Origin: Candidatus Yanofskybacteria bacterium RIFCSPLOWO2_02_FULL_41_13
GTDB taxonomy: Bacteria > Patescibacteriota > Minisyncoccia > 2-02-FULL-40-12 > GWA2-44-9
Reading direction: 5' to 3'
Length of the DNA stretch: 64,000 nucleotides
NCBI GenBank assembly: GCA_001795735.1
Contig: MGKQ01000001.1
Location: 14,808 to 78,807 of the forward strand
The notes under the pieces were generated by a model. That model was not told the origin of the DNA and did not search any database. It saw only the letters and a list, made by a program, of their open reading frames with translations. This document shows, piece after piece, positions 1 through 60,932 of the stretch (its first letter is position 1; each line of letters starts with the position of its first letter). Position numbers and translations under genes: made by a program.

Positions 1-315
1 GAACATCTGGAAAATTTTTCTCCCGCCCTAGATCACATCCTAGCAAGCACCAAGAAGATAATCATAGCCAGAACTTATCTCGGCGAAAAACAAGAACGGG
101 ATATTATGCTTAAAGAGCATAGCCAATATCCCTACCCTATGAATCAGTATTCTTTTTTGGATATCTTTAGAACATTCGCCAAATATAACTTTGAAGCGAA
201 GATAGTTCGCGATCGTTACACTGATTCCCTGCCCTATTATGTCCCTTTTGAAACCGTACCCGGACAGGGTTTGGTTAGAACTCAATATGTAATAGTAGGC
301 CGTAAAACAAAATGA
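1..315 (+). CDS. 3' end of an upstream gene (5'-truncated by the window edge), hypothetical protein
   Basis: Frame 1 is open from position 1 to TGA at 313-315. That stop overlaps the ATG of the next gene (ATGA coupling). Confidence 0.4.
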   Translation, partial: EHLENFSPALDHILASTKKIIIARTYLGEKQERDIMLKEHSQYPYPMNQYSFLDIFRTFAKYNFEAKIVRDRYTDSLPYYVPFETVPGQGLVRTQYVIVGRKTK

Positions 316-992
316 GACAAAGTTATACCTCAGTAGTTTATAACGAAACGAGAACACCAATAACCAAATACCCGGACCAACTGGCCGGTTACCTTATTCA
401 TAGGTTCGAATTAAAACCGGGTAATCGTCTTTTGGAACTAGGCTGTGGACGGGGCGATTTTATATCCGCCTTTAAACGAGCCGGCCTTAGCTGCGCCGGG
501 GTAGACAGAGAACCAGCAAGTATCCCCGGAATAGAAGTAAGAAAATGTGATCTATCCAAAGATCCCCTGCCATTTGAAGACGAAAGCTTTGATGTAGTTT
601 ATCACAAATCAGTTATTGAACACCTTTATCAGCCAGACCACATAATGGACGAAACCTACCGGATTCTAAAGAAAGGAGGAAAGTTAATTTTCCTAACCCC
701 CGACTGGGAAAGGCAACTAAAAACTTTTTATGAAGATATCACTCACTGCCGGCCGTATAACGTCACGGCCGTAAAAGACACTCTTTCTATGTGGGAAATG
801 CAAGATATATTGGCCGAAAAGTTTTATCAATACCCGCTATTTTGGCGCTGGCCCATCTTGAAATTTTTAGGCCTATTATTTAACCCCTTTATTTCCGTTA
901 AGCTGGCTCGCTGGTATACTCGTAAAACAAACAAGAAATTTTTTCAATTCTCCATAGAAACAATGGTTCTCGGATACGGTAAAAAGAAGTGA
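312..992 (+). CDS. class I SAM-dependent methyltransferase
   Basis: Motif I LELGCGRGDF followed by acidic motif II. ATGA overlap with the upstream ORF. Confidence 0.75.
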   Translation: MRQSYTSVVYNETRTPITKYPDQLAGYLIHRFELKPGNRLLELGCGRGDFISAFKRAGLSCAGVDREPASIPGIEVRKCDLSKDPLPFEDESFDVVYHKSVIEHLYQPDHIMDETYRILKKGGKLIFLTPDWERQLKTFYEDITHCRPYNVTAVKDTLSMWEMQDILAEKFYQYPLFWRWPILKFLGLLFNPFISVKLARWYTRKTNKKFFQFSIETMVLGYGKKK

Positions 993-1113
993 TATCAATA
1001 TGCAAATGAATTATGCCAATATGCAAATGTAATGCGAATGCCGCGAATATGCAAATACTACATTAATGTAATTCGCAATTCGTAGATTCGCATTAGATTC
1101 GTAGATTTGCATC
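992..1113. promoter_or_regulatory. iteron-like direct repeats (3x AATATGCAAAT[G/A]) plus an inverted ATTTGCAT and TTCGTAGATTCGCAT direct repeats upstream of the 1114 gene
   Basis: Repeats read directly from the sequence at 998-1009, 1018-1029 and 1047-1058. ATTTGCAT at 1105-1112 abuts the ATG. Confidence 0.45.
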
Positions 1114-2715
1114 ATGACTATTAACTTTAATTCTCCGAACTACCTACCAAATTCAGAACAACGACTAGAGCATCTCCGTCGTATTATTAATGGACGCCCG
1201 GTAGCTATTTTGGTCGCCGGCCCTTCGATTAGTGAACTGGAAGAAAGGATCGGCGAACTCTCCCAAGCGGATATTTGTTACTTCGGAATGAACAATTTTT
1301 TTGTTCAGGAAAATCACATTTTAAAAAAAATAGGCAAACATTTTTCCTTATTGGTTGAAGCTGTCGACAACACCAATAAATCATTCTCTTTGGTCTTCAA
1401 TAGAATTATAGACTTTCTGGACAGAAGTGAGGACAATATGCTTGTTTCTTCCTTTACGAACTTTAAAATATCAGGCCCGAATTTTGATTTCCAAAAATTT
1501 TTGCATAAATATAACAATAAACTTCTTTCCCCCTGCGGCGTTTACGACAGGACCGTACCGAATGATGCCCAGCCCCTGCATCTTATACATGGTAACTCAC
1601 TCTCGTGGCTGATATATTTAGCTATTATCGGCAAAGCCTCCAAAATTAGCCTGTTTGGGGCAGACGGTTACACTAAAAACGAGAATACAAAAAAGACGTA
1701 TTACCGCTCTGAAGAATATGGCACAATGCCCCAGAAACAGCTTATGAATAATACCGATAAAGGCTTCAATCCGGTTGTTCCACTTTCATTACAAAATATT
1801 TATAAAACCTACGATCTTAAACCAATACCAATTTTAAATTGTTCTGAAGTTAGCTTTTTAACTCCCTTTCCGAAGGTCTCATATGATGACGCTTTTAATT
1901 TCCTGCTGGGCATAAAGCACACGCAAGAGATTTCTGATCTGCGTATTCCAACCGCCTCAATTATCATCCCAACCCCGGTAGATGATGAAAAACTAAAGAA
2001 TACTTTGAAAAATATTGCCGAACAGTCTTATTCAAATTACGAGACGGTTATCGTCCAAAAGAGTTCAGATTTCTTGGACGCCATGAAAAAAGCCATATCT
2101 TCGGCCAAGGGAAAATATGTTTTCTACTGTCCGCCGGACAACAGCTATCCGGATATTCATTGGATTAATTCTTGCTTAGAAATACTAGAGAACAGGCCCC
2201 AGATTTCCTTAGTCTGCGGTCTGCCTAAAAATACTGAACGGCCTTGGCCAAAGAAAAAGTTTATATATTACTGGCTCAAGAAAAAAAACTTCTTCCCGCC
2301 GAACATGCTCTGCGTCCGAAAGCAAGTTCTGGAAAAGTTTCTGCTCGAGACTGATATCGTCCGTGCAAATACAGAGTTTGAGAATTGGCTGAACTTTAGC
2401 TTATTTTTTAATATGAGCGGGTACTTGCCGGCTTTTATTCCGACAACTATCGCCAAGCATGATCGGACAAGTGAAGACGATGAATCACTAGATAATTACA
2501 GGCGCCAAGTTAATGACTATAAGAATCGTCTCATCTTTAAAAAGACATCGCATCATTTCAGAGACGGCGACGGCAATATCCTACCGGGCAAATTCTATCT
2601 AAGCATATTTTTACTTTATGGTTTAGCCGAGAAAGTTAACAGTAGGTTGCCTCTTTCCTTGCACACTTACTTAAATATTGCTAAAAATATAGTTAGAAAA
2701 TTTTATCAAAAATAA
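1114..2715 (+). CDS. two-domain protein: N-terminal DUF115/Maf-like (MptE-like) domain fused to a degenerate GT2-like glycosyltransferase domain
   Basis: N-terminal GRPVAILVAGPSISE...YFGMNNF pattern as in motility-accessory-factor/DUF115 proteins. C-terminal IIIPTPVDD...YETVIV resembles GT-A fold family 2. Confidence 0.5.
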   Translation: MTINFNSPNYLPNSEQRLEHLRRIINGRPVAILVAGPSISELEERIGELSQADICYFGMNNFFVQENHILKKIGKHFSLLVEAVDNTNKSFSLVFNRIIDFLDRSEDNMLVSSFTNFKISGPNFDFQKFLHKYNNKLLSPCGVYDRTVPNDAQPLHLIHGNSLSWLIYLAIIGKASKISLFGADGYTKNENTKKTYYRSEEYGTMPQKQLMNNTDKGFNPVVPLSLQNIYKTYDLKPIPILNCSEVSFLTPFPKVSYDDAFNFLLGIKHTQEISDLRIPTASIIIPTPVDDEKLKNTLKNIAEQSYSNYETVIVQKSSDFLDAMKKAISSAKGKYVFYCPPDNSYPDIHWINSCLEILENRPQISLVCGLPKNTERPWPKKKFIYYWLKKKNFFPPNMLCVRKQVLEKFLLETDIVRANTEFENWLNFSLFFNMSGYLPAFIPTTIAKHDRTSEDDESLDNYRRQVNDYKNRLIFKKTSHHFRDGDGNILPGKFYLSIFLLYGLAEKVNSRLPLSLHTYLNIAKNIVRKFYQK

Positions 2716-2780
2716 ATTAAAAGTGAATTTTAAAACACGTCATAAAAAACTTGTCAATAATTTAATTATCCACTTTTTGC

Positions 2781-2809
2781 TTGACACCTTTTGACACCTT
2801 TTGATACTG
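2781..2809 (+). promoter_or_regulatory. promoter-like motif TTGACACC-TTTTGACACC-TTTTGATACT (duplicated -35-like TTGACA, -10-like GATACT)
   Basis: Perfect TTGACA at 2781 and 2791, and GATACT 16 nt after the first. The same composite motif recurs at 23616 and 24789. Confidence 0.5.
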
Positions 2810-2844
2810 TTAATCTGGGTAAGTTATTCTTTCTATTTTTATAT

Positions 2845-2888
2845 TTACCTGTACGGCCCGCTATCATATAAGCGGGCCGTACAGGTAA
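2845..2888. promoter_or_regulatory. perfect 18-bp-arm palindrome (TTACCTGTACGGCCCGCT / AGCGGGCCGTACAGGTAA) with an 8-nt loop in the leader of the HTH gene. Candidate operator or stable 5'-UTR hairpin.
   Basis: Arms checked base by base. GC-rich core. Ends 16 nt before the ATG at 2904. No T-run follows. Confidence 0.55.
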
Positions 2889-2903
2889 TAAACCTTTTAA
2901 ATT

Positions 2904-3149
2904 ATGGCTGAAATTAATCCAAACGAAGTCTACACAACAAGCGAGGCTCAATCGCTTCTTAAGATCAGCAACAGCACTATAAAGCGCCTTCTAAAAAGAG
3001 GTGCCATCAAGGCTAATAAAATAGGAGGACAATATCGCGTCATGGGCAAAGAACTTTTGAGACTCCTGTCCCCCACCATAGAAAGACGGGCAGTAGAAAC
3101 CTATCAACGCTTAAAGAAAAAAGTTAAAAGAAAAATTAAAACCTGGTAA
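2904..3149 (+). CDS. small helix-turn-helix DNA-binding protein (excisionase/MerR-like HTH_17 family)
   Basis: SEAQSLLKISNSTIKRLLKRGAIKANKIGGQYRV is the characteristic excisionase-family HTH. Confidence 0.65.
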   Translation: MAEINPNEVYTTSEAQSLLKISNSTIKRLLKRGAIKANKIGGQYRVMGKELLRLLSPTIERRAVETYQRLKKKVKRKIKTW

Positions 3150-3191
3150 GTATTTGTCCGAGAGTGAAATGATCGGTAACAAATACTTACC
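3145..3191. repeat. 13-bp perfect inverted repeat (GGTAAGTATTTGT / ACAAATACTTACC) hairpin overlapping the stop of the HTH gene
   Basis: Seen in sequence. 21-nt loop containing a CCGA/TCGG mini-stem. No T-run. Confidence 0.5.
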
Positions 3192-3479
3192 CCCTCACTC
3201 GAAATATGTATTATTTTTATGTGTTAAAATCAGAAAAAGACAACAATCTATACTTTGGGTATACGAATAATATAAAACAGAGATTTGAGGATCATAACAA
3301 GGGCAAGGTGAGCTCAACGAAGAACAGAAGACCGTTAACCTTGCCCTATTATGAAGCATACGAGTCAGAGAAAGATGCCAGGAACAGAGAACTACAAATT
3401 AAACGTAGAGCAAAAGCTTTTATTAGCTTAAAGCGAAGGATCATATATAGCATTATCTAATTTATTTCGAGTGAGGGGG
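3190..3479. repeat. perfect 16-bp inverted repeats (CCCCCTCACTCGAAAT / ATTTCGAGTGAGGGGG) precisely bracketing the GIY-YIG ORF
   Basis: IR-L at 3190-3205 abuts the ATG at 3206. IR-R at 3464-3479 starts 4 nt after the stop. Confidence 0.6.
3206..3460 (+). CDS. GIY-YIG domain small protein (UPF0213/YhbQ-like)
   Basis: YFYVLKS...LYFGYTNNIKQRFEDHN matches the GIY-YIG motif. About 84 aa. Confidence 0.75.
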   Translation: MYYFYVLKSEKDNNLYFGYTNNIKQRFEDHNKGKVSSTKNRRPLTLPYYEAYESEKDARNRELQIKRRAKAFISLKRRIIYSII

Positions 3480-3567
3480 TGCTGATAATTACAGCTACTC
3501 GCTTTCAAGGCGAAGATTCACGGGGGGAACTTCCTGGGAATCGCCTCCGCTCGTAGGTAATTATCGC

Positions 3568-4569
3568 ATGATCATAACCCGAACACCCTTTAGAATATCT
3601 TTCTTCGGCGGAGGAACTGACTATCCAACCTGGTACAAAGAAAACGGCGGATCGGTTCTGTCTGCCGCCATAAACAAGTATTGTTACATCACGTGCCGGT
3701 ATTTACCGCCATTTTTTAAATATAAACACAGAATCGTATACAGCCAGATTGAATCAGTAGATAAAATAGACCACATAGATCATCCGTCTGTCAGGGAGAC
3801 GATACGCTTTCTTAATATTGATAAAGGGCTGGAGATACACCACGACGGAGATTTGCCGGCTATGTCCGGGCTGGGATCTAGCTCTTCTTTTACTGTCGGC
3901 CTGATAAATGCTATAAGCGCATTAAATGGCACGCTAAAAACCAAGAGAGAGGTGGCCATGAATGCAATTCATATTGAGCAAAATATGATAAAGGAGAATG
4001 TCGGTTCTCAGGATCAGACAGCAGCGGCTTTTGGCGGACTAAACCGGATAGATTTTGGAGGGGCTAAGGAAATATCGATCAAGCCTCTAGTATTGAGCCC
4101 CAATCGGCTTGAGTCTCTTCAAGACCACCTAATGCTATTCTTTACCGGCTTATCACGAGATGCTTCAAAGATCGCAAAAGAACAGGTAACAAACATTAAA
4201 AATAGGGGCACTGAATTGAAATTGATGCACAGATTAGTTGATGAAGGAGAGGCAATTTTAGCAAACAGCAGAAAGGGATTAGATGAATTTGGAAAACTTC
4301 TGAATGAGGGGTGGAAAATAAAAAAATCATTGTCGTCAAAAATAACAAATCCCTATATTGATGACGTATATAAAGCCGGAATACGAGCCGGAGCGTTAGG
4401 GGGCAAACTGCTTGGTGCGGGAGGGGGAGGATTTATTCTATTCTTTGCAAAACCAGAGACGCATGAAAAAATAAAAAGCAAATTAAAAAATTTGCTTTTT
4501 GTCCCTTTCCGGTTTGACCATCTTGGCAGCCGGATTATATATACCGGGAATGACTTTGAAAAGTTCTAG
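3568..4569 (+). CDS. GHMP-family sugar kinase (HddA/heptose-7-phosphate-kinase-like or other sugar-1-kinase)
   Basis: GHMP motif GDLPAMSGLGSSSSFTVGL and C-terminal LLGAGGGGFILFFA. Confidence 0.75.
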   Translation: MIITRTPFRISFFGGGTDYPTWYKENGGSVLSAAINKYCYITCRYLPPFFKYKHRIVYSQIESVDKIDHIDHPSVRETIRFLNIDKGLEIHHDGDLPAMSGLGSSSSFTVGLINAISALNGTLKTKREVAMNAIHIEQNMIKENVGSQDQTAAAFGGLNRIDFGGAKEISIKPLVLSPNRLESLQDHLMLFFTGLSRDASKIAKEQVTNIKNRGTELKLMHRLVDEGEAILANSRKGLDEFGKLLNEGWKIKKSLSSKITNPYIDDVYKAGIRAGALGGKLLGAGGGGFILFFAKPETHEKIKSKLKNLLFVPFRFDHLGSRIIYTGNDFEKF

Positions 4570-5354
4570 AGACTCTTGCCCTGGCCTCCATCGATCACTA
4601 TTGAAGCGCCGTTTACTAGCCGTGCCTTGTCCGAGCAGATAAATGCTACGACATTCGCCACTTCTTCGGGTGAACCAAGTCGTCCCAAAGGAAAATTATC
4701 CATAACAAATTTATTGAACTCTTCTGGATTTTCTTTTTGTTTTTTATCCAGTCCCGTGTCAGGTATCATTATCTGTCCGGGAGCAACGCTGTTAAAAGTA
4801 ATTCCATCCCTCACTAAATCATGTTTAACAGCCAAGCTTTTCATGAAGCTTATCTGAGCACTCTTTGCCATACTATACCACGGTCTTCCCCCCGCTTCAC
4901 GCCCGCATATAGATGATATAGTAACTACCCTTCCCCATTTTTCCTTCCTCATAACAGGCAAGCATCGCATTGTAAACCCAATAGCTGCCGTAACATTTTT
5001 GTCATAAACTTCCTTCCACACATTTTCGGAAGTTTTTTCAACATCATCACTGCCCCAGCTTCCTCCTCCACCAACATTATTTATTAAAATATGTAACTTA
5101 CCCCACACACCAATTATCGTGCTCGTCACACGTTCAATATCCCGCGGTTTTGTGACATCCGCCACCAGACCAAGCCCAGTAACACCCTGACCGTTTATTT
5201 CCTCAACTACCTCAGCGACCCTCTCTACATTTCTTGCACAGATAGCTACATTACAGCCCTCTGCTGCCAGAGCAATAGCTATAGCTCGGCCTATCCCGTG
5301 ACTACCGCCGGTTACTAATGCATACTTACCACTTAATCCTAAGTTCATGTCCAC
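4566..5354 (-). CDS. short-chain dehydrogenase/reductase (classical SDR)
   Basis: TGGSHGIGRAIAIALAAEG Rossmann motif. Confidence 0.8.
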   Translation of the reverse strand: MDMNLGLSGKYALVTGGSHGIGRAIAIALAAEGCNVAICARNVERVAEVVEEINGQGVTGLGLVADVTKPRDIERVTSTIIGVWGKLHILINNVGGGGSWGSDDVEKTSENVWKEVYDKNVTAAIGFTMRCLPVMRKEKWGRVVTISSICGREAGGRPWYSMAKSAQISFMKSLAVKHDLVRDGITFNSVAPGQIMIPDTGLDKKQKENPEEFNKFVMDNFPLGRLGSPEEVANVVAFICSDKARLVNGASIVIDGGQGKSL

Positions 5355-5419
5355 CTCCTTAAATCGTAAGTTATCAAATAAACTGGCTACACAATAGAAT
5401 ACTATTCTGAGTTTGTCAA

Positions 5420-5447
5420 AAAAAATAGGCCGCTAGACCTATTTTAC
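5420..5447 (-). terminator. rho-independent terminator (minus strand) after the transketolase C-subunit
   Basis: AAATAGG / CCTATTT stem followed by a T-run on the minus strand. Confidence 0.45.
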
Positions 5448-5453
5448 TCCATA

Positions 5454-6398
5454 TTATCCAAGCCACTCATATATTCTTGCGACTAACGCATCTCTATCCA
5501 AACGAATCTGGGCATGGACATATTCACGCGTTCCATAAGTAAAACAATCTTCATCTTCAAGGGCAATCCTTTTTAGAGACACGGCTGATAACCCGTAATC
5601 GAATAAAAATTCGCTTATCAGCGAGCCAAGACCACCGATAGGACTATGCTCTTCTAGAGTAACAACTTTTTGACAACCGGTTAGAATTTCTGCCATTAGG
5701 CTAGAATTAAACGGCTTGATACGATACACGTCAACAACTCCGATATCAATTCCCCGAGAATTTAAAATATCTGCAACCGCTAAGGCCCTATGGACCATCA
5801 GCCCCGTTGAGATAATAATTACATCTTTTCCATTTCTGATTTTTGCTAAACCTGCATAAAAATTTTCTTCCCCGGTATAAATTGGCGGAGGATTATCCTT
5901 ATCGAATCGGATGTAAAGAGGTCCGTTAGTGTTTCGATGAGCAATCTCAGGAAAACGAGACAAGCTGACCGTATCAGATGCATTCAAGATCGTCATCCCA
6001 GAGATTGCCCGCAGAATTGATAAATCTTGAACAGCGTGATGTGTAGGTCCGGCATCACCATAAGAATACCCGGCTCCGACTCCCACCAAAGTAACAGGAA
6101 GACCCATTAAGCCTAAATCCACTTTTATTTGCTCATAACATCTCAGGGTAAGAAATGATGCGATTGCATGTACAAAAACTTTTTTACCACCCAAGGTCAA
6201 ACCGGCCGCAACACCTATTAAATTTTGTTCTGCAATCCCGCCATTGATTATCTGGCTGGGTATAGCTTGCTTAAATTTTTCGAAAGTATGAGCTTTCTGG
6301 TCGCCATGTATCAAAACGACACTGCTGTCGGCTAGAGCTAGAGTATATAGCTCCTCAAAAAAGGCATCCCGCATATCTGCGTAGTTTTTAACTTGCAT
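5454..6398 (-). CDS. transketolase, C-terminal (pyrimidine-binding) subunit of a split transketolase
   Basis: Transketolase C-terminal-section-like sequence. Start placed at the ATG with an AGGAG SD (11-nt overlap with the N-subunit gene). Confidence 0.8.
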   Translation of the reverse strand: MQVKNYADMRDAFFEELYTLALADSSVVLIHGDQKAHTFEKFKQAIPSQIINGGIAEQNLIGVAAGLTLGGKKVFVHAIASFLTLRCYEQIKVDLGLMGLPVTLVGVGAGYSYGDAGPTHHAVQDLSILRAISGMTILNASDTVSLSRFPEIAHRNTNGPLYIRFDKDNPPPIYTGEENFYAGLAKIRNGKDVIIISTGLMVHRALAVADILNSRGIDIGVVDVYRIKPFNSSLMAEILTGCQKVVTLEEHSPIGGLGSLISEFLFDYGLSAVSLKRIALEDEDCFTYGTREYVHAQIRLDRDALVARIYEWLG

Positions 6399-7221
6399 TT
6401 TCGTTCTCCTGATATGTAAGTTCCTGCCTAGCCTTAGCAGCAAATTCGCCCTTGGGTGCACCGTGATGCCAATTAGAGTTGTTCTCCATGAACGAAACCC
6501 CCTTGCCCTTTATGGTTTCGGCTATTATAGCCGTGGGCTTATCCGTTGGTTGTTTGGCTCTTTCAAAACCCGACAATATATCCTTAAAATTATGGCCGTC
6601 TACTTTTATCGTGCGCCAGCCAAATGCCTGCCATTTGTTTTCCATCAGAGCAGATCCTGAAAAATTCATGGTAAAATCGGAAGCGCCAATTTTATTATTA
6701 TCTATCACGGCAATCAGATTATTCAGTTGATGATTTTGACCAAACATGGCCGCCTCCCAGACAGAGCCCTCATTGCATTCAGCATCACCCAGAATCACTA
6801 CCGTAAGAAAATTACTTTTGTTCATTTTCGCGCTTAGGGCAAGGCCACAGGCAATACTTAATCCATGGCCCAGAGACCCTGAAGAGATTTCTATTCCCGG
6901 TATTAAATGGTCCGGGTGATCTCCAAGTATCGTTCCATTTTTACCACAATTTTCTAATTCCCCAACGTCGAAAAATCCTAAATCTCCTAAAATTGCATAA
7001 AGCCCAAGCATGGCATGGCCCTTACTAAATATCACCCTATCTCTGTTAGTATTATTTTTTAAGAGAGGAGATACGTTCAAAATACCACCATAGTAGAGGG
7101 CAACAAGGATCTCTACGCAAGAAAATGTACCACCTAGGTGGCCCCTGCCGGCACTAATGCACATTTCCAAAGCCTTCCTTCTAACCCAATTCGCCTTCCT
7201 ATCCAGTTCGTCTGTGTTCAT
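6388..7221 (-). CDS. transketolase, N-terminal (ThDP-binding) subunit of a split transketolase
   Basis: GDLGFFD...GDHPD...GSLGHGL...GDAECNEG are ThDP-binding motifs of the transketolase N-terminal section. Confidence 0.8.
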   Translation of the reverse strand: MNTDELDRKANWVRRKALEMCISAGRGHLGGTFSCVEILVALYYGGILNVSPLLKNNTNRDRVIFSKGHAMLGLYAILGDLGFFDVGELENCGKNGTILGDHPDHLIPGIEISSGSLGHGLSIACGLALSAKMNKSNFLTVVILGDAECNEGSVWEAAMFGQNHQLNNLIAVIDNNKIGASDFTMNFSGSALMENKWQAFGWRTIKVDGHNFKDILSGFERAKQPTDKPTAIIAETIKGKGVSFMENNSNWHHGAPKGEFAAKARQELTYQENENAS

Positions 7222-7362
7222 CTTTCCCTACCTATTTCTTTTTAAGGATCTTTCGTACAAAAAGCATACTATAGTTTTCAATTAAATCAAGCGGTTAGGT
7301 TGACAAGCATGATAAGATTATTTACTCTCCACTAATGCTTGGTACAAACGAGGGGCAGTAAG

Positions 7363-8481: not shown

Positions 8482-8484
8482 CAT

Positions 8485-8510
8485 ACCGCCATAATTATGG
8501 CGGTTTTTGA
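8485..8510 (+). terminator. rho-independent terminator
   Basis: ACCGCCAT / ATGGCGGT stem followed by TTTTT. Confidence 0.6.
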
Positions 8511-8568
8511 CATGCTATAAAAAATAGTTTATCTTAATGCCAAGCAAAAAACGAATTGGGAGGTTATC

Positions 8569-10567: not shown

Positions 10568-10593
10568 TCCAGCTTAGTTCCTTAAATTAACGC

Positions 10594-10626
10594 AAATCCC
10601 TGGCACAATGCCCGGGATTTTTATTT
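10594..10626 (+). terminator. rho-independent terminator after the E1-beta gene
   Basis: AAATCCC-TGGCA / TGCCCGGGATTT stem followed by a T-run. Confidence 0.55.
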
Positions 10627-10674
10627 AGAAAACTTGCTGGATTTTTAGTTTTTTTTAAGCTAAGTTAAGGTATT

Positions 10675-11705: not shown

Positions 11706-11786
11706 AAGAACGAAACTGGGCCATATTGACTGGAGTATAAAAATATAACACTATTTAACCCAAAGTCCTTTAAAAAGAGGTGCTTA

Positions 11787-13927: not shown

Positions 13928-13932
13928 ATTTA

Positions 13933-13957: not shown

Positions 13958-13991
13958 GTTTACCTAAAACTTATTGCCCCGTAAGTCTGAT

Positions 13992-48061: not shown

Positions 48062-48089
48062 GAAAATTGAAAATTGAAAATTGAAAATT
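48062..48089. repeat. heptanucleotide tandem repeat (GAAAATT)x4 in the spacer between the GT2 stop and the deacetylase start
   Basis: Seen in sequence. The last unit overlaps the GT2 stop codon. Confidence 0.8.
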
Positions 48090-51490: not shown

Positions 51491-51610
51491 CCCGCTTAGA
51501 AGTAGTGCAAGCACCCACTACCACCATATGATGCCGCACACTATTAATTATTGACTGATATTCATATCATTTAACCCGTTTAGAGTACTTCTAACGGGAT
51601 TCATTTATTC
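51486..51610. mobile_element. roughly 125-bp terminal-inverted-repeat element, copy A (MITE-like)
   Basis: Ends CATCCCGCTTAGAAGTAG ... GTACTTCTAACGGGATTCAT. Near-identical to copy B at 61162. Overlaps the last codons of gene 51591..52541 and the start of the MTase gene. Confidence 0.65.
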
Positions 51611-54437: not shown

Positions 54438-56294
54438 ATGAAACTGACAGACTATCTAGCTCAGTATTTAGCTGATTTGGGTATTAAAAAAGTTTTCCTT
54501 ATCACCGGTGGAGCTTGCGCTCATATTGTAGATTCGCTTGGAAAAAATCCAAATATCGACTACGTCTGCATGCAACATGAACAGGCTGCCGCAATGGCCG
54601 CGGATGCCTATGCTCGAGTAACCAAAAATATAGGAGTTGCCGTCGCAACTTCCGGTCCGGGAGCAACTAATCTCATAACCGGTGTTTGCTGTTCTTATTT
54701 TGATTCAATTCCAACGCTGATGATAACCGGTCAGGTAAACTTGTGGGAAACTAAGGGTGAAAGAAAAATACGACAATTCGGATTCCAAGAAACCGATATC
54801 GTTGATATCGTCCAGCCGATAACTAAATTTGCCGAAATAGTTAAAGATCCTGATAATATAAAATATTTGCTTGATAAGGCTGTTTATATTGCCAAATCAG
54901 AAAGACCGGGTCCTGTCTGGCTGGATATTCCGATGAATGTTCAGCATGCCGAGATTGAGCCGGATCGGCTTATAGGTTTTGATCCTGAAATTTATCACGA
55001 ACATGATGAGCCGCCGTTACAGAAATACACGGACTTAACTTCATACGATATGTGGGGTATTTTAGGCAAGCTAAAAAAATCAAAAAGACCCATAATTATC
55101 GCCGGCTCTGGAATAAAATTAGGTCGAGCCGAAAATGAATTTCTAAAAACGCTGAGTGTGCTAAAAATCCCTGTCGTATCAACTTGGAGCGGAATTGATA
55201 TTCTGCCCCACGATCATGAACTATATATCGGTCAATTTGGCGTCTATGGAAACAGGGCGGCTAACTTTGCTGTTCAAAATTCAGATTTACTTCTGAGCCT
55301 GGGCTCACGTCTTGATACGCGTCAAACTGGCGGTCAGCCTAAAACATTTGCCAGAGAAGCATTTAAGATCGTAGTCGATATTGACAAAACAGAGCTAGAC
55401 AAGCAATGGGTAATAGCCGATATGCCGATAAATGCTGATGTAAATGATTTTCTTACGAAACTAAATATTTTTGTTTCTTATTCTGATGACCACCTTCCAA
55501 ATTTTTCAGATTGGCATTCAATCTGTCTAAACTGGAAACAAAAATATCCGGCCGTTCTTCCCGAATACTATCAGCAGGAAGGATCAGTTAACTCTTATGT
55601 TTTTATTAAAGCATTGTCGGAAAAACTTCCCCCGAACTCGATAATTATCCCTGATCAGGGTGGTAACCTAACTTGGACAATCCAAGGATTTAAAGTAAAA
55701 AGTGGCCATCGATTATTCTCGGCTTTCGGCAACTCGCCGATGGGCTATGCCATGCCGGCATCAATCGGAGCCGCTTTCGCCGATCCTACAGCAAATATAA
55801 TTTGTATCGACGGAGACGGTGGGTTCCAGATGAACATCCAAGACCTTCAGACGATCAGACACTATAACCTGCCAATAAAAATGTTCATTCTTAATAATAA
55901 TTCTTACGGAATTATTAAACAATTCCAGGAAGTTTATTTTGAGGGACGCTATGAAGCTACTGTCAAAGAAACTGGCTATACTGCTCCCGATTTTGTAAAA
56001 GTTGCTCAAGCCTATGGAATTGTAGCAGAAACTATTAGAGATCACTCTGGGATTGATCAAAAACTAGATAGAGTGCTCGCATTCGAAGGACCTATTATAT
56101 GCGACGTAAGATTAGATGAATCACAGAAACTAGTACCCAAACTTGTGGCCATAAAAACGGCTGACGGGAAATATATCAGTAAGCCGATTGAAGATATGAT
56201 TCCCCTGTTGCCCAGAGATGAGTTCAAAGAAAACATGATTGTAAAACCGCTTGAAGAGAATGACGGCACCAAAAAACCGTCGGAGATAAACTAA
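54438..56294 (+). CDS. ThDP-dependent acetolactate-synthase-like enzyme (IlvB/YerE-like large subunit)
   Basis: N-terminal ThDP-pyrimidine domain, central domain, C-terminal GDGGFQMNIQDLQT...NN ThDP motif. Confidence 0.8.
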   Translation: MKLTDYLAQYLADLGIKKVFLITGGACAHIVDSLGKNPNIDYVCMQHEQAAAMAADAYARVTKNIGVAVATSGPGATNLITGVCCSYFDSIPTLMITGQVNLWETKGERKIRQFGFQETDIVDIVQPITKFAEIVKDPDNIKYLLDKAVYIAKSERPGPVWLDIPMNVQHAEIEPDRLIGFDPEIYHEHDEPPLQKYTDLTSYDMWGILGKLKKSKRPIIIAGSGIKLGRAENEFLKTLSVLKIPVVSTWSGIDILPHDHELYIGQFGVYGNRAANFAVQNSDLLLSLGSRLDTRQTGGQPKTFAREAFKIVVDIDKTELDKQWVIADMPINADVNDFLTKLNIFVSYSDDHLPNFSDWHSICLNWKQKYPAVLPEYYQQEGSVNSYVFIKALSEKLPPNSIIIPDQGGNLTWTIQGFKVKSGHRLFSAFGNSPMGYAMPASIGAAFADPTANIICIDGDGGFQMNIQDLQTIRHYNLPIKMFILNNNSYGIIKQFQEVYFEGRYEATVKETGYTAPDFVKVAQAYGIVAETIRDHSGIDQKLDRVLAFEGPIICDVRLDESQKLVPKLVAIKTADGKYISKPIEDMIPLLPRDEFKENMIVKPLEENDGTKKPSEIN

Positions 56295-57298
56295 TGGAAT
56301 ATATGTATGGACTGCATAGTCACACTTGGGATTCGATAGAAATTGAAGACGCCAAGAAATTAATTGGCCCTATTCTGATACTTGGCGCATCTGGATTTAT
56401 TGGCGCCAAACTTTTTTTCAATTTAAGCCAGTGTCGCAATGATATCTTCGGATGTTCTAGAGACATTAAGAACAGCTGGAGATTCAAGTATCATAATTGG
56501 CAGAATCTGGAGAGTCTTGATATCACGAACTATAAAGAAGTTGAGCGTTTATCTAAGAGAATCAGGCCGAAAACCATTTTTAATTTATCTTCTTACGGAG
56601 GACATAGCCATCAGACGGATATCGAACAAATCCATCAGGTTAACTATATCGGAGCAACTAACATACTGAGGGCCATAGCCGATATAGAGTACGGTGCTTT
56701 TATACAGGCGGGCAGTTCATCTGAATACGGTTTGAATTCTGCCGGTCCAAAGGAAGATGCTAAACTGGTACCAAATAGTGCTTACGCCGAATCTAAGGTT
56801 AAGTCATATTACATGGTAAATTACTATGGCCAAGCCATGTTTCCGGTAATGCACTTGAGGCTATATTCTATTTACGGACCCTGGCAGGAAAGAAAAACAC
56901 TAATGCCCGTACTGATATCCCACTGTCTAGAAAATAAATGGCCTCCGCTTGTGGACAAAGAAGCTTCACATGACTTTGTCTATGTAGACGATTGTGCCTA
57001 TGCTTTCGTAAAAGCCGCCCTGGCTCTGTACGAAAAGAAGGGCTTCGGAAAAGCCGTAAATATAGCTACTGGAGTAAAAACAAAGACAGAAGATTTAGTA
57101 AAAATATCCCAAAGAATATTTGGTGTTACTTCAGAACCGATATTCGGCTCCATGCTAAATGAGGGACGGGACCTTGTGAACTGGTATGGGAATCCTGAAT
57201 TGGCTCTAAAAGAGCTCAGCTGGTATCCCAGAGTCGGACTGAACCAAGGCATTGAATTAACAAGCCGATGGGAACAAGAATTTAAAAAGACCGCATGA
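56294..57298 (+). CDS. NAD-dependent epimerase/dehydratase (extended SDR)
   Basis: ILILGASGFIGAKLF. Confidence 0.7.
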   Translation: MEYMYGLHSHTWDSIEIEDAKKLIGPILILGASGFIGAKLFFNLSQCRNDIFGCSRDIKNSWRFKYHNWQNLESLDITNYKEVERLSKRIRPKTIFNLSSYGGHSHQTDIEQIHQVNYIGATNILRAIADIEYGAFIQAGSSSEYGLNSAGPKEDAKLVPNSAYAESKVKSYYMVNYYGQAMFPVMHLRLYSIYGPWQERKTLMPVLISHCLENKWPPLVDKEASHDFVYVDDCAYAFVKAALALYEKKGFGKAVNIATGVKTKTEDLVKISQRIFGVTSEPIFGSMLNEGRDLVNWYGNPELALKELSWYPRVGLNQGIELTSRWEQEFKKTA

Positions 57299-57356: not shown

Positions 57357-58226
57357 ATGACTGAATTTGAAAAACTTATTCACGAATATTCATTTTTTTA
57401 CGACAAGGGTTTATTCTCCCAAAAAACCTCAAAGCTAGAACAGCGCTACCGGGAATACTTGAACTTGGAAAATCTTGCTTCAACCAAAGAAACAGCCCAG
57501 CTTATAGCTAAAGTGGCTAACCGACACCTTAAGAAAACCGGTCCCATAGATGCACTCGAGATTGGCTCCGGCATCGGCGGCCTGGCAGTCGCCATGGCAC
57601 GCCTTGGAAATCGCCATGTTACCGGCATTGAACCTGAAGCGCCGGCAGTCAAAGCTTCATCGCTTCGCGCTCAAAAGTACAAAAATATTAAGGCAGAATT
57701 TATACAAGGATACGGAGAAAAAATACCATTGCCGGATAGATCGTTTGATCTAGCCTATACTCAATCCGTCCTCGAACATGTAACAGACATTCAAAAAGTT
57801 ATATCCGAAGCATACCGTGTTTTACGGCCCGGAGGAGTAATTTACATTGAAACGCCAAATTATCTTTGGCCGGTGGAACAGCATTACAAAACTTTCTTCC
57901 CCCCCCTTCTCCTAAAACCGCTGGCACGCCTTTACCTAAGACTGCGAAAGAAGAATCCCGATGGCATTAACACCCTCAACTACGTCACGCCGATAAATAT
58001 CCGCCGATATCTCAAAAAGGCCGGTTTTATAAACATTACCGATAACACCTTGGAAGAATACGCCGGAAAGCTGAATGACCTTTCACGCATTAAACACAGG
58101 AGATACCTGCGGGTCCTTCTTAAAATCCCCCTCGCCTCTTCTATAATCAGCGGCGTAATTCATTCATTACTCAAACTTGGATTGTATCCGGGACTAAAAA
58201 TGAGTGCGCAGAAGAACATCATTTAA
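57357..58226 (+). CDS. class I SAM methyltransferase
   Basis: ALEIGSGIGGLAVAMA. Confidence 0.7.
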   Translation: MTEFEKLIHEYSFFYDKGLFSQKTSKLEQRYREYLNLENLASTKETAQLIAKVANRHLKKTGPIDALEIGSGIGGLAVAMARLGNRHVTGIEPEAPAVKASSLRAQKYKNIKAEFIQGYGEKIPLPDRSFDLAYTQSVLEHVTDIQKVISEAYRVLRPGGVIYIETPNYLWPVEQHYKTFFPPLLLKPLARLYLRLRKKNPDGINTLNYVTPINIRRYLKKAGFINITDNTLEEYAGKLNDLSRIKHRRYLRVLLKIPLASSIISGVIHSLLKLGLYPGLKMSAQKNII

Positions 58227-59371
58227 ACAAAAGACAATATATTCTTGACTCTGCGCTCCCAGGTATAATTCTTAACATCCTCCATGGCTTTTTTGGAAAG
58301 TTGAAAGCCCAAGTCGGGTTCACTTAATATTCTGCCTATCCCCCGGTCTAAATCGCCAGGTTTATTCGGGTTAACTAAAATTGAGTTTTGATCATTAAGG
58401 ACTTCTGCGATCGATGGTAAATTGCTCGCGACAATCGGACAGCCTGACGCCATGTATTCAAAAAGCTTAACCGGCGAAGTATTTAGATAAACCTTATCTT
58501 TAGCCGAATTAGGCAATGTCAGAACATCGGCCGCTTTTAGATAAACCGGAATTTCTTTATGCGATTTGTGACCTAAGATCAAAACGTTTTTCAACCCCCT
58601 CGCTTTTTCCCTAAATTTCTTGATATCATAGTCCATCCCCCCGACAAAAATAAATAACACAGCATCTCTTTCTTGGAAATTGGAAACTAGAAATTGGAAA
58701 TTCCTTGCTGTTTCCAACAAGGAATAAACTCCCTTCCACTCGAATAAGTGACCTGTGTACATGACTATCTTTGAATCTTGGGACAGACTTAACTTCTTTC
58801 GTGCTTCCTCCTTTGATATCTGTATATCAAATTCGTTCATATCAACACCGTCATGAGCAACTAAAACGTTATCAGCCGAAAAGCCGATATTTAAAAACTT
58901 GCCCCTGAGGCTTTCCGAAATAGTAACTACTTTTAAATTCCTGGCCAGAAATCTTCTGTAAAAAAATATTCTGGCATCAGAAAAATTATGAGCCTCAAAA
59001 ACAATTTTTTTATTGAAGAAGCTTAGAAAATATAACGGCCACTCGTCGCGGGAATAAATAATATCGGCTTTTTGGACAACGGCGTAAAAAGAAAGAAGCA
59101 GGGCAGATATAACTCCCTTAATGTTGACTGCAATTTTATCAAGCCGACCGGAAAAATAAAAATCCGGTGCCCATATTCTTTTTATCTTAAAATTTGTTCT
59201 GACGGAATAGTATGAGCAGAGCTCATCTCTGATGTGATTGTCTCTGAAAGGATACAGTAGAGTCACCTCAAGACCCTGCAATGCAAAAGTTTCGCACATC
59301 TTAGCAATTTGGACACCATATGCTTTTTCTGTCGGCAACCTTAAATTAGCAATAAATAAAAGTTCTCTCAC
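58223..59371 (-). CDS. GT4 glycosyltransferase containing an in-frame heptamer repeat tract
   Basis: GT4 C-terminal EYMASGCPIVASN. Tract TTGGAAA-TTGGAAA-CTAGAAA-TTGGAAA at 58673-58700 encodes NFQFLVSNFQ. Confidence 0.75.
   Translation of the reverse strand: MRELLFIANLRLPTEKAYGVQIAKMCETFALQGLEVTLLYPFRDNHIRDELCSYYSVRTNFKIKRIWAPDFYFSGRLDKIAVNIKGVISALLLSFYAVVQKADIIYSRDEWPLYFLSFFNKKIVFEAHNFSDARIFFYRRFLARNLKVVTISESLRGKFLNIGFSADNVLVAHDGVDMNEFDIQISKEEARKKLSLSQDSKIVMYTGHLFEWKGVYSLLETARNFQFLVSNFQERDAVLFIFVGGMDYDIKKFREKARGLKNVLILGHKSHKEIPVYLKAADVLTLPNSAKDKVYLNTSPVKLFEYMASGCPIVASNLPSIAEVLNDQNSILVNPNKPGDLDRGIGRILSEPDLGFQLSKKAMEDVKNYTWERRVKNILSFV
58673..58702. repeat. imperfect heptanucleotide tandem repeat (TTGGAAA family, 4 units) inside the GT4 coding sequence
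   Basis: Seen in sequence. Confidence 0.8.
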
Positions 59372-60067
59372 TTATTTGTAGTTAGACCTGGAAAACTTCC
59401 TAACTAACGGCTTGACTAGCTCTTTAATAAACCGAGGCGGTTTTATGTATATTGAAGATGTGACCATATTTTTAAGAGACAAAGTATACAAACTTTCAAC
59501 TGCATCTTTCAAGGAGCTTCTCCTGCATTTTGTGGCAAAGAGTATGTTATCTATAAAGCCTGCGTTTCTAAATTTCCTGGATCTAAGTATGTATCTTGAG
59601 ACGACTTTCCTTACATCGGGATAATTAAACGTTGCATCATGATATGCAATAATTCCGCCTTCTCTCAAATAAGGCTCCCAAAGCAGAAAATCAGTTTCGG
59701 CCATTTTATAAGTATGATCGCCGTCAATCCAGAGAAAATCAACCGGTTTATTCCAGTTCTTGCTGGCCTCCTCTGATGTTGCAACCACAACCTCAACAAA
59801 CCCATCAACATTATGTTTATTCAGGTTGCTCTTAAGCTGACCTAGGGCCAAATCGTCAAAATATTGAGGATCTATAGCGTAAACCCTTCCTTTTTTATCT
59901 GAATTCTTCAGAGCATCGGCCAATACCACGGTTGAGCGGCCATAAAGACTGCCTATTTCTACTATCGTGCCGCCGTTTTTACGAACAACATCATACAAAA
60001 AATCAGCCTCTCTCTTAGAAAGAAAGCCTGGGATATCATTTAAAATACGGTCCAGATCTTTTGCCAT
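59372..60067 (-). CDS. class I SAM methyltransferase (CmcI/O-MT family-3-like)
   Basis: TIVEIGSLYGRST...WIDGDH pattern. Confidence 0.6.
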   Translation of the reverse strand: MAKDLDRILNDIPGFLSKREADFLYDVVRKNGGTIVEIGSLYGRSTVVLADALKNSDKKGRVYAIDPQYFDDLALGQLKSNLNKHNVDGFVEVVVATSEEASKNWNKPVDFLWIDGDHTYKMAETDFLLWEPYLREGGIIAYHDATFNYPDVRKVVSRYILRSRKFRNAGFIDNILFATKCRRSSLKDAVESLYTLSLKNMVTSSIYIKPPRFIKELVKPLVRKFSRSNYK

Positions 60068-60122
60068 ACTTTTTAGGTTATACCATTTCCGCTAAAAAAC
60101 AAACCGGCAGTATATAACAAAT

Positions 60123-60932
60123 TTATATTTTTTGAGCCACGACTAATATCTCAAAGCCAAAATGCTTTGAGATATATCTGTTTGATATAGAATCTAATAA
60201 TCTAACACTCACGTCTAGTATCTTTGCCGCAAACTTCATAAATTTAGGGTGATACCGAGAAAGACAATATGCAACGAAAAATCCGTCAGTAGCCAAAACT
60301 TTACAATTAGATGCCTTCGCAAGATCTTTTAATTCTTTGATCTTGAAAGATTTTTCAAAACCATATTCATAGTTTTTGCCCTTGATCATCTTAAATAATT
60401 TATGCGGGTTCCAGTAATTATTTACTGATACAATTAAAATTCCGTTTTTCCTCAACATTTGTGCCATAACTGCAAAAGCCCTTCTATAATCTTTTAGGTG
60501 CTGTATCGTTGCATCGGAAAAAACTATATCAAATTGTCCATCCTGAAATGGTAGATTAAAAACATCCGCTTGTTTAAATTCAACATTAGCTATATTTAAA
60601 TGAGCGGCAAGCCCTTTTGCCACTGCAAGTGACTCCTCCAGAATATCCGTTAGCACAAACTTGGATTCCGGAAAATCTCGAGCCAGTGCGATGCCATATC
60701 TCCCCGTACCTGTTCCGATATCAAGGAAACTAAACTTTTTAGAAGGTACATATTTCTTTATTATCGGATATCCTCTGACGAATAGCTGATTTTTAAGAAT
60801 TTTATCAACCTTGCTAAGACGAGCCTGTTTATCCCAGACATTGCTCCAGATAGTATTAATTGATTTTTGAGGTTTTGTATTTTCCATCTCAGTCATTAAT
60901 AAGAGAAGCATAGATCTCAATCTGCTTATCAA
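60123..60932 (-). CDS. class I SAM methyltransferase
   Basis: FLDIGTGTGRYGIALA...DIVFS. Confidence 0.7.
   Translation of the reverse strand: MISRLRSMLLLLMTEMENTKPQKSINTIWSNVWDKQARLSKVDKILKNQLFVRGYPIIKKYVPSKKFSFLDIGTGTGRYGIALARDFPESKFVLTDILEESLAVAKGLAAHLNIANVEFKQADVFNLPFQDGQFDIVFSDATIQHLKDYRRAFAVMAQMLRKNGILIVSVNNYWNPHKLFKMIKGKNYEYGFEKSFKIKELKDLAKASNCKVLATDGFFVAYCLSRYHPKFMKFAAKILDVSVRLLDSISNRYISKHFGFEILVVAQKI

Follow-up and report, generated by a model that had tools for sequence, protein, structure and literature searches.

A methyltransferase-rich, modular glycan biosynthesis island in a “Candidatus Yanofskybacteria” genome

RESULTS

A 64,000-nucleotide stretch of the genome of “Candidatus Yanofskybacteria bacterium” RIFCSPLOWO2_02_FULL_41_13 (assembly GCA_001795735.1, contig MGKQ01000001.1, positions 14,808 to 78,807 of the forward strand; hereafter the window, to whose first nucleotide all coordinates refer) encodes nine class I S-adenosylmethionine (SAM)-dependent methyltransferases (MTases; M1 to M9) and five radical SAM proteins among ~60 genes. 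On balance, we regard the window as the central 64 kb of a surface-glycan super-island of ~80 kb or more, and we think it probable that this island operates as a modular glycan factory, in which independent, divergent MTases tailor separate sugars and whose product is one or more complex surface glycoconjugates containing pseudaminic acid (Pse). A preliminary description of this DNA had read the same genes as the means of placing more than ten methyl groups on one hydrophobic glycan.

Divergent methyltransferases distributed over sugar modules

The nine MTases named in the preliminary description are genuine, and they lie in a genuine glycan biosynthesis island: all nine open reading frames (ORFs) score above the curated Pfam cutoffs for class I SAM-MTase models, the weakest call being that of 37281 to 38120 (Methyltransf_23, 41.3 bits versus a cutoff of 27), and the concern that several might prove to be non-MTase Rossmann proteins on profile search was borne out for none of them. 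A tenth MTase, M0 (216 amino acids [aa]; Methyltransf_12, 32.8 bits versus a cutoff of 30), ends at position 315, and the start of the window truncates it. Iterated phmmer searches with the ten MTases as seeds against all six-frame ORFs of the window returned no MTase beyond the nine. Some details of the preliminary description needed correction. Motif I, said to be clear throughout, has the canonical E/D-x-G-x-G-x-G form in five of the nine (the ORFs beginning at 312, 37281, 50750, 57357 and 60123), and its middle glycine is replaced in the other four (LDIGAANG, LEIGCNVG, FEVGCAGG and VEIGSLYG). Such variants are common in the class I superfamily. Zn ribbons, named together with N-terminal extensions as features of several MTases, are confined to M2 (7363 to 8481), the sole protein of the nine with a Zn-ribbon-like CxxC...CxxC pair (CPLC...CQSC).

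The ten MTases are mutually divergent, sharing at most 31% identity, and thus are not recent duplicates. They are placed one or two per sugar module, each gene within or beside a glycan module and mostly co-oriented with sugar-enzyme or glycosyltransferase (GT) genes. Their divergence, together with their spread over at least five sugar modules, makes it most likely that they tailor several different sugars and not one glycan. An NCBIfam scan supplied a specific name for M3 alone, and single-sequence PDB searches with M1, M2, M3, M4, M7 and M9 returned generic class I MTase matches, among which O-, N- and C-methylation are not separable.

The window contains 9 MTases per ~60 genes, or 2.8 per 20 kb sustained over 64 kb, compared with a mean of 1.1 and a median of 0.95 MTase ORFs per 20 kb in 39 comparator loci of at least 15 kb for which homologues of PseI, M2 or mini-Maf (see below) served as anchors; the comparator counts are lower bounds, as the seeds miss some MTase families. 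The density of the window is equalled or exceeded locally in 5 of the 39 comparators (e.g., four MTases in 15.6 kb of locus L036), so that the local density is not unique, but the total sustained over the island is. Related groundwater loci contain up to four MTases per 15 to 21 kb, and orthologues of three of the window MTases recur there, which shows that the earlier statement that heavy methylation is unusual outside mycobacteria was too strong.

Assembly integrity and extent of the island

The island is not a chimera, a possibility that the preliminary description had itself raised. At least five independent assemblies (from ENA, JGI and NCBI, representing different samples and assemblers) are collinear with the window at 99.94 to 100% identity: ENA scaffold_458 (75.6 kb) covers positions 1 to 60842, k141_207544 (104.8 kb) extends over the window from 24056 onwards, and NCBI MGJR01000027.1, JGI 3300002529 and others cover parts of it. 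Ten proteins distributed across the window have exact matches in GenBank, in several metagenome-assembled genomes (MAGs) named “Candidatus Yanofskybacteria bacterium”; proteins from all parts of the window map to these MAGs and to a single contig of 143,635 nt, on which most of the ten are encoded. The host lineage belongs to the Patescibacteria group/Parcubacteria group of the candidate phyla radiation (CPR), and the sample names indicate the Rifle aquifer data sets as the origin. GC content ranges from 0.36 to 0.44 without a compositional break, and the only irregularities are a miniature inverted-repeat transposable element (MITE)-like insertion and small ORFs of mobile-element type, which leaves the probability of a mis-binned or chimeric assembly of unrelated loci practically negligible.

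Glycan genes extend contiguously from approximately −9.7 kb to approximately +69.9 kb, that is, over ~80 kb or more, and the whole island carries ten MTase and seven radical SAM genes (five of the latter in the window and two upstream). The upstream flank (−9.7 kb to 0, as seen in the context of locus L007) encodes an aminotransferase, an aldo-keto reductase, a short-chain dehydrogenase/reductase (SDR), a B12 radical SAM protein, a HAD phosphatase and a second radical SAM protein, followed nearest the window by a 291-aa NeuB, a CMP-transferase and M0, and the downstream flank contains five further family 4 GT (GT4) genes, to ~+69.9 kb. CPR genomes are typically ~1 Mb, and one related Patescibacteria MAG is a single 1.15-Mb contig; taking a genome of ~1 Mb, the island would occupy ~7% of the chromosome. 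No tRNA genes or Rfam families were detected in the window, and there is thus no evidence of an integration site.

The pseudaminic acid module and a putative minimal Maf-like transferase

The region from 24.8 to 37.3 kb encodes, to judge from its profile matches, a bona fide Pse pathway. PseB (24844 to 25830; TIGR03589, 423.1 bits versus a cutoff of 407.75), PseC (25779 to 26939; TIGR03588, 447.9 versus 423.5) and the pseudaminic acid synthase PseI (34316 to 35398; TIGR03586, 465.2 versus 340.25) all exceed the NCBIfam equivalog cutoffs, and all genes of the module up to and including the transferase at its end are on the plus strand. M3 (26936 to 27571) matches the pseudaminic-acid-biosynthesis-associated methylase family (TIGR03587, 199.7 bits versus a cutoff of 112), and its orthologues adjoin PseC in loci L020, L031 and L043. 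M3 is followed by a 613-aa fusion of a NeuB-like domain and a cytidylyltransferase (27547 to 29388; Pfam NeuB, 85.7 bits, and CTP_transf_3, 78.3 bits), of which an 81% identical orthologue occurs in the Rifle relative L043. The NeuB-like TIM barrel is divergent (99 bits to NeuB and 67 bits to PseI in NCBIfam, both far below cutoff), and the protein, which has no equivalog-level match, is likely the CMP-Pse synthetase, in the role of PseF.

Genes for a WbuX amidotransferase and for HisH-like and HisF-like proteins (29385 to 31915; TIGR03573, 382.8 bits versus a cutoff of 203, with GATase and His_biosynth matches) indicate, by family assignment, the conversion of an N-acetyl to an acetamidino group. 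The adjacent DUF218 protein, SDR and ATP-grasp ligase (31924 to 34344; NF009402, 260.7 bits versus a cutoff of 218) are candidate enzymes for tailoring the Pse side chain. PseI is followed by a radical SAM/SPASM protein (35451 to 36362) that has orthologues in 13 of 80 loci containing homologues of the gene that it adjoins. That gene (36366 to 37259), the last of the module, encodes a 297-aa DUF115/MptE-like putative CMP-nonulosonate transferase, here termed mini-Maf.

Mini-Maf possesses the central MptE-like/sialyltransferase-like catalytic domain that characterizes Maf proteins, and Foldseek agrees with a DUF115/Maf-type assignment. It is 297 aa long versus 632 aa for Maf, ~205 residues align, and the three-domain architecture of ~600 aa is absent. 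All members of the family measure 280 to 300 aa, and mini-Maf is, as far as the alignments indicate, the catalytic core of Maf only, without the extra Maf domains. Downstream of it are M4 (37281 to 38120, minus strand), which has an N-terminal extension of ~130 aa, and, on the plus strand, M5 (38168 to 38920; a Pfam class I MTase), which forms a conserved pair with a GT4 gene (38924 to 40138).

The closest relatives of PseI in species-representative genomes (L015 to L024) are only 39 to 56% identical and are taxonomically scattered over Lentisphaera, the archaea Methanohalophilus and Methanolobus, Acidobacteria, Firmicutes and one Patescibacteria MAG, a distribution that suggests horizontal spread. 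The archaeal relatives are intriguing beside reports of Yanofskybacteria occurring with archaea in bioreactors and living on methanogens (PMC9600506).

A recurrent module around M2

M2 (plus strand) lies in a module, which we call module A, consisting of an HddA-like GHMP kinase (3568 to 4569), an SDR (4566 to 5354), a split transketolase (5454 to 7221), M2 itself, E1 alpha/beta subunits (8569 to 10567), an EEP phosphatase (10956 to 11705), a DegT aminotransferase (11787 to 12989) and an epimerase (12989 to 13927), all assigned with Pfam and NCBIfam. The module spans 3568 to 13927 by this gene list and 3.5 to 16 kb when the KedN5-like radical SAM gene that follows is counted.

The four cysteines of the N-terminal Zn ribbon of M2 (C51, C54, C79 and C82) are invariant in 28 homologues. 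When its AlphaFold2 model (pLDDT 89.9) was compared with the PDB by Foldseek, the top 18 matches were all NDP-sugar C3-methyltransferases (MtmC, TcaB9 and KijD1; E values of 7e-15 to 3e-12), aligned over ~310 to 320 columns of the 372 residues, with generic MTases starting at an E value of 1.5e-10, and a profile of the M2 family likewise matched MtmC (4rv9; E value, 4.8e-10). Like TcaB9, MtmC and KijD1, M2 thus has a four-Cys Zn domain at its N terminus, followed by a SAM and a C-terminal domain, but it differs from them in sequence (15 to 19% identity) and has a TM-score of ~0.5.

M2 and its homologues form a family of their own, with members of ~360 aa that occur in uncultured bacteria at capsule-like loci. 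In unrelated bacteria, M2 homologues adjoin kinase, E1 alpha/beta, DegT, B12 radical SAM or thiamine diphosphate (ThDP) enzyme genes, and their loci also hold ABC transporter and Capsule_synth genes. One case is locus L026 (ENA ERZ26167216 ctg495136, positions 1 to 19023 of a 1.03-Mb contig), in which an unrelated organism has a near-syntenic module A at 34 to 47% identity, comprising an HddA-like kinase, E1 alpha/beta, DegT, NUDIX, a 699-aa KedN5-like radical SAM protein (44% identity) and an M2 MTase; L026 also carries two further B12 radical SAM genes. Because M2 homologues elsewhere sit with the same gene set, module A appears from these comparisons to be a recurrent, conserved and uncharacterized, radical-SAM-rich sugar-nucleotide pathway. 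It would probably make, at the nucleotide-sugar stage, an amino sugar with a C-branch or C-methyl group.

Radical SAM proteins

All five radical SAM genes of the window are real: a CxxxCxxC motif is present in each, as it is in the two upstream, and one is of the SPASM type (at 35451 to 36362) and four are class B-like. The preliminary description had given all four of the latter a B12-binding domain, which Pfam detects in only two, 13992 to 16067 and 44136 to 45710; the other two calls come from NCBIfam similarities far below cutoff and from paralogy. The protein encoded at 13992 to 16067 (minus strand; CPYACTFC motif), at the end of module A, resembles the KedN5 family (NF033712, 253.8 bits versus a cutoff of 700) and is 44% identical to its L026 orthologue. 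That at 18968 to 21133 (plus strand) is its paralogue at 43% identity. The third (21180 to 22478, minus strand; Radical_SAM, 73 bits) has weak similarity to PhpK, BchE and HpnJ (TIGR04479 [PhpK], 87 bits versus a cutoff of 600), and the B12-binding protein at 44136 to 45710 (minus strand) has orthologues that are 70 to 72% identical in loci L055 and L064. The remaining class B matches are to KedN5 (206 bits versus a cutoff of 700) and to the Sden_1168 family (119 bits versus a cutoff of 575). No member of a characterized methylase subfamily (KedN5, PhpK, etc.) was found among the four, all NCBIfam scores lying far below cutoff.

Membrane-associated and terminal modules

A minus-strand block downstream of the Pse module contains the B12-binding radical SAM gene, a GT4 gene (45804 to 46862), a gene for a YdjC-like, deacetylase-type protein (47164 to 48033), a PgfS/ArnC-like GT2 gene (48088 to 49083; 269 and 165 bits) whose product has two C-terminal transmembrane (TM) segments, a gene for an ArnT/PMT-like GT-C (49108 to 50760) of 550 aa with ~11 TM segments, and M6 (50750 to 51514; Methyltransf_23, 71.2 bits), which has a C-terminal TM segment at residues 187 to 205. 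The GT-C was assigned by its family profile, whose only PDB match is ArnT (5ezm; E value, 3.2e-14); PMT_2 matches occur in 31 of 34 homologues, the window protein itself having no direct Pfam match, and it contains an N-terminal acidic motif, HQDEYRW, with an invariant D32. At its 3′ end, the M6 gene runs 11 nt into the start of the GT-C gene, and M6 orthologues with 62 to 66% identity are adjacent to GT-C in L036 and L055. A GT2 with C-terminal TM segments, a YdjC protein and an 11-TM GT-C recall the ArnC/ArnD/ArnT, PgfS/PgfM (Streptococcus mutans) and Ppm/Pmt systems, which work in two steps with a polyprenyl-phosphate-sugar and a GT-C and from which the window differs in that a TM-anchored MTase gene overlaps the GT-C gene.

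The region from 53 to 58 kb encodes an RfbH-like pyridoxal phosphate enzyme (53085 to 54305; NF011936, 384.3 bits versus a cutoff of 423), an acetolactate-synthase-like, YerE-like ThDP enzyme (54438 to 56294; TIGR00118, 431.8 bits versus a cutoff of 538), an SDR (56294 to 57298) and, following this ThDP enzyme/SDR pair, M7 (57357 to 58226, plus strand; Methyltransf_11, 83.6 bits). From gene order and general knowledge, we infer that this would be a module for a yersiniose-like branched dideoxyhexose: the yersiniose route employs an RfbH/E1 dehydrase, the ThDP-dependent YerE and a reductase, and the window has RfbH-like, ThDP enzyme and SDR genes side by side. The window differs from that route in its scores below cutoff, in that an E3 reductase and a CDP-glucose synthase were not identified in it, and in the extra MTase. 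In one assembly (ERZ28563557 scaffold_220, L014), the alignment with the window breaks for ~40 nt at ~57223 to 57262, in the 3′ end of the SDR gene and just upstream of M7, and the gene calls downstream of the break differ from those of the window; this may be a strain-level indel.

The rest of the window is occupied, on the minus strand, by GT4 genes and two MTases. A GT4 gene (58223 to 59371) adjoins M8 (59372 to 60067), whose only Pfam match is Methyltransf_24 (PF13578; 94.2 bits), of the CmcI clan. Homologues of M8 at 39 to 42% identity are named “MMP 1-O-methyltransferase” (MMP, methylmannose polysaccharide) by JGI, and several co-match PF04989 (CmcI), so that calling this protein CmcI-like, as had been done, is fair. 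Its best PDB match is 6g7d (E value, 1.5e-12, over residues 71 to 150 only), which we take to be MeT1 of Mycobacterium hassiacum. Going by the JGI label of its homologues, M8 would methylate a sugar on oxygen. M9 (60123 to 60932; Methyltransf_31, 93.5 bits) has PDB matches that include the D-glucose O-methyltransferase 6uv6 (E value, 8.5e-10). Beyond it are a GT4 gene split by a MITE-like insertion (60889 to 61191 and 61287 to 62252), another GT4 gene (62249 to 63424) and a GT4 gene of 343 aa, of which the ORF listed for the window (63421 to 63933; 170 aa) is the C-terminal part only.

Related loci

Mini-Maf loci come mainly from groundwater metagenomes, and the frequencies of orthologues were counted over 80 of them (over 53 for the position of M5). 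Parts of a common core recur in many of them, a core in which PseB-PseC-M3-...-PseI-radical SAM/SPASM-mini-Maf-M5-GT4 occupies one strand and radical SAM-GT4-YdjC-GT2-GT-C-M6 the opposite one. An M5 orthologue occurs in 17 of the 80 loci (directly after mini-Maf in 10 of 53), an orthologue of the GT4 at 38924 to 40138 in 36 and one of M4 in only 3. Across lineages, the orthologues of M3, M5 and M6 keep their respective neighbors, PseC, mini-Maf/GT4 and GT-C. In another lineage of Yanofskybacteria, a different, legionaminic-like set that includes an FkbM-type MTase lies beside recA and ftsK. The window island is, on these comparisons, an unusually expanded version of what appears to be a variable, recurring type of locus.

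Other genes and mobile elements

At the upstream end of the window, M1 (312 to 992, plus strand; Methyltransf_11, 64.9 bits, with generic NCBIfam and PDB matches) follows the NeuB, CMP-transferase and M0 genes of the flank. The 533-aa protein encoded next to it (1114 to 2715, plus strand) has weak similarity to GT2 enzymes in the C-terminal half (Glycos_transf_2, 24.5 bits, residues 282 to 318 only); the idea that it is a second Maf-like transferase was dropped when BLASTP against mini-Maf and a relaxed Pfam search gave nothing. Between module A and the Pse module are genes for an RmlC-like 3,5-epimerase (16167 to 16700), two Fcl-like SDRs (16737 to 17738 and, on the plus strand, 22616 to 23569), an aldo-keto reductase (17915 to 18883) and a TIGR04440-type glycosyltransferase-like protein (23652 to 24752, plus strand).

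A minus-strand trio of DUF4956, VTC and CotH/beta-helix genes (40135 to 43977) separates the mini-Maf/GT4 block from the B12 radical SAM/GT4 block. The CotH-kinase/beta-helix protein has 808 aa and an N-terminal TM segment, and VTC and CotH orthologues occur in 6 of the 80 mini-Maf loci; the trio may be functionally tied to the island, e.g., in surface phosphorylation or polyphosphate chemistry. A 316-aa protein without a family match in Pfam or NCBIfam (51591 to 52541) adjoins M6 and a NUDIX gene, the latter situated between it and the RfbH-like gene; a DSD motif after a beta-strand-like stretch could mark it as a GT-A-type glycosyltransferase.

The MITE-like element that splits the GT4 gene measures ~112 nt (61168 to 61279) and has 13- to 17-bp terminal inverted repeats (AATCCCGTTAGAAGTAC ... 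GTACTTCTAACGGGAT); the split gene is also present in independent assemblies. A second copy, ~85 to 90% identical, is at ~51490 to 51598, between M6 and the ORF at 51591 to 52541, and a related terminal-repeat pair is at ~17790 to 17849. The repeat motif was observed 4 times versus 0.05 expected, and the RNA fold has an energy of −39.5 kcal/mol (z = −4.1). The window also contains three ORFs of GIY-YIG nuclease type (84 to 103 aa; 3206 to 3460, ~10675 to 10960 and 46872 to 47183) and an HTH_17 excisionase-like ORF (2904 to 3149) in the 2.7- to 3.6-kb gap, and a 23S_rRNA_IVP four-helix protein and a fragment of a Y1 transposase are encoded just beyond it. Mobile-type genes such as these are consistent with a locus that rearranges often.

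DISCUSSION

The identities of the genes, their modular layout and the conservation of individual modules elsewhere were observed directly, in an assembly that is not chimeric. From these, we infer what the enzymes act on, whether each MTase methylates oxygen, nitrogen or carbon, how many glycans are made and whether the acceptor is a protein or a wall polymer. In the scheme that we favor, M0 and M1, which follow a second set of NeuB and CMP-transferase, would serve that set, and M2, with its NDP-sugar MTase architecture, would work in the module of kinase, split transketolase, E1, aminotransferase and KedN5-like B12 radical SAM protein. M3 would act inside the Pse pathway that also forms an acetamidino group, after which mini-Maf, with its sialyltransferase fold, would transfer the CMP-nonulosonate, M5 (and here also M4) being encoded with the conserved GT4 immediately downstream. 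The GT-C, the polyprenyl-phosphate-sugar GT2, the YdjC deacetylase and the membrane-anchored M6 would constitute an extracytoplasmic transfer step; M7 would serve the RfbH-like/YerE-like/SDR trio in making a yersiniose-type branched dideoxyhexose, and M8 and M9, among the GT4s, would probably methylate the assembled oligosaccharide. The resulting glycoconjugates would vary among strains and would be decorated with several methyl, C-branch and amidino groups.

Several results weigh against this scheme. The RfbH-like and acetolactate-synthase-like proteins score below their equivalog cutoffs, methylation may not be the function of the class B radical SAM proteins, and M1, M4, M5, M7 and M9 have generic family matches only. 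Neither M2 nor 66 of its homologues matches Methyltransf_13 or Methyltransf_14, the Pfam models for the N- and C-terminal domains of sugar C-MTases. PseG and PseH are without a match (Pfam at an E value of ≤1e-4 for the window ORFs and precomputed Pfam annotation for the flanks), and it is possible that they have been replaced non-orthologously. Finally, no gene for an initiating phosphoglycosyltransferase, Wzx/Wzy, an ABC exporter, a pilin, an S-layer protein or a flagellin was seen in the ~84 kb covered.

The generic matches of those five MTases also bear on the alternative that several of the MTases act off sugars, on residues of an acceptor protein, on a lipid carrier or cofactors, or as chain-terminating or regulatory enzymes like WbdD. 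The membrane anchor of M6 and the functional promiscuity of class I MTase folds would suit this explanation, which we nonetheless consider unlikely, given that each gene lies in or beside a glycan module and is mostly co-oriented with it, that M3, M5 and M6 have retained their neighbors across lineages and that M2 and M8 have sugar-MTase relatives. Decidedly unlikely is the original proposal of one hydrophobic glycan that is methylated more than ten-fold in the manner of the methylated polysaccharides or glycopeptidolipids of mycobacteria. In its favor are the ten MTases and as many as six radical SAM proteins of class B type within ~80 kb, the long run of GT4 genes and the relationship of M8 to proteins labeled MMP 1-O-methyltransferase, and M8, a Methyltransf_24 protein whose homologues bear that name and whose gene adjoins a GT4 gene (ManT is a GT4; PMC9883506), does give the mycobacterial analogy one anchor. 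The remainder of the analogy is not supported. Mycobacterial polymethylated polysaccharides owe their methyl density to few MTases (MeT1 and pMeT3), which act repeatedly on a homopolymer together with one mannosyltransferase, ManT, and a hydrolase (PMC9883506), so that the number of MTase genes does not predict the number of methyl groups, and the MTases of the island diverge from one another and belong to different sugar modules. The MMP system comprises MeT1, pMeT3, ManT and MmpH; no such four-gene cluster, no ManT, MmpH or pMeT3 set and no MmpH-like or glycoside hydrolase-type hydrolase was identified in the window and its flanks, and acyltransferase and lipid-attachment genes were not found in the island. 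Whereas the MMP is a cytoplasmic homopolymer, the product of the island is probably surface-exposed and heteropolymeric, and its identifiable sugars are charged, either acidic (Pse) or cationic (acetamidino, via WbuX, HisH and HisF), which speaks against the simply hydrophobic character previously ascribed to it.

That part of the island might make a secondary metabolite that is glycosylated and diffusible, e.g., a pseudo-oligosaccharide of the aminoglycoside or orthosomycin kind, is suggested by the TcaB9/MtmC-like MTase and by the B12 radical SAM, E1 alpha/beta, ThDP and DegT enzymes, all typical of antibiotic deoxysugar pathways. We judge this very improbable: polyketide synthase, nonribosomal peptide synthetase, cyclitol, aglycone, resistance and exporter genes were not found in the island, homologues of the M2 module are accompanied by genes for capsule export (Capsule_synth and ABC transporters), and more than 11 GT4 genes, the GT-C and the Maf-fold transferase point to a glycoconjugate. 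A Campylobacter-type island, in which Maf places Pse derivatives on flagellin, is a further alternative. The Maf islands of Campylobacter, Aeromonas, Magnetospirillum, Geobacillus and Clostridium flagellin share with it PseB, PseC and PseI, a CMP-transferase domain, a Pse methylase, amidino enzymes and other Pse-associated tailoring genes, the position of a DUF115/Maf-fold transferase directly after the pathway genes, and a gene content that varies between related lineages. Glycosylation of flagellin is nevertheless most improbable here, as no flagellar gene occurs in the window or its 10-kb flanks, three homologous loci are also without flagellin or flagellar genes, and the transferase is a minimal protein of 297 aa, less than half the length of the 632-aa Maf and devoid of its extra domains; no CPR bacterium is known to be flagellated. 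The Yanofskybacteria island further departs from these islands in its CPR host, in the missing PseG and PseH and in being several-fold larger, with ten MTases, seven radical SAM genes and a GT-C module.

The reading that we prefer, that of separate MTases tailoring separate sugars of Pse-containing surface glycoconjugates, thus places the locus in a known category, the nonulosonic-acid glycan islands, and what sets it apart is the host, the share of the genome that it takes up, how many MTase and radical SAM genes it has and the uncharacterized enzyme families that it contains. CPR bacteria, or Patescibacteria, are ultrasmall and mostly uncultured episymbionts whose host recognition and phage resistance are largely unknown. 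Searches of mainly open-access literature for work linking CPR bacteria (also as Patescibacteria or Parcubacteria) to pseudaminic, nonulosonic or sialic acid, or to glycosylation of the cell surface, yielded nothing relevant and only incidental co-occurrences in unrelated papers. The island alone does not open a long-standing question, and if our interpretation is wrong, it would be a large but ordinary polysaccharide locus.

A more far-reaching proposal is possible, though we hold it to be doubtful: that a hypervariable island amounting to ~7% of the ~1-Mb genome of a CPR episymbiont produces hypermodified, Pse-capped, N-amidino, O-/C-methylated or C-branched surface glycans by means of enzyme families without a characterized member. 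These would include a mini-Maf acting on a nonflagellar acceptor (a pilin, S-layer or wall polymer), a new family of TcaB9-like NDP-sugar MTases and KedN5-like cobalamin radical SAM enzymes that C-methylate the sugars of surface glycans, and the resulting coat would mediate attachment to the host or evasion of phages in an organism dependent on scavenged cobalamin. The island provides compact, conserved candidates for new glycan enzymology, namely, mini-Maf, the M2 family, the class B radical SAM proteins of sugar loci and the MTase gene that overlaps the GT-C gene, and ~80 kb or more in a genome whose size is taken to be ~1 Mb would represent a very large investment in surface chemistry.

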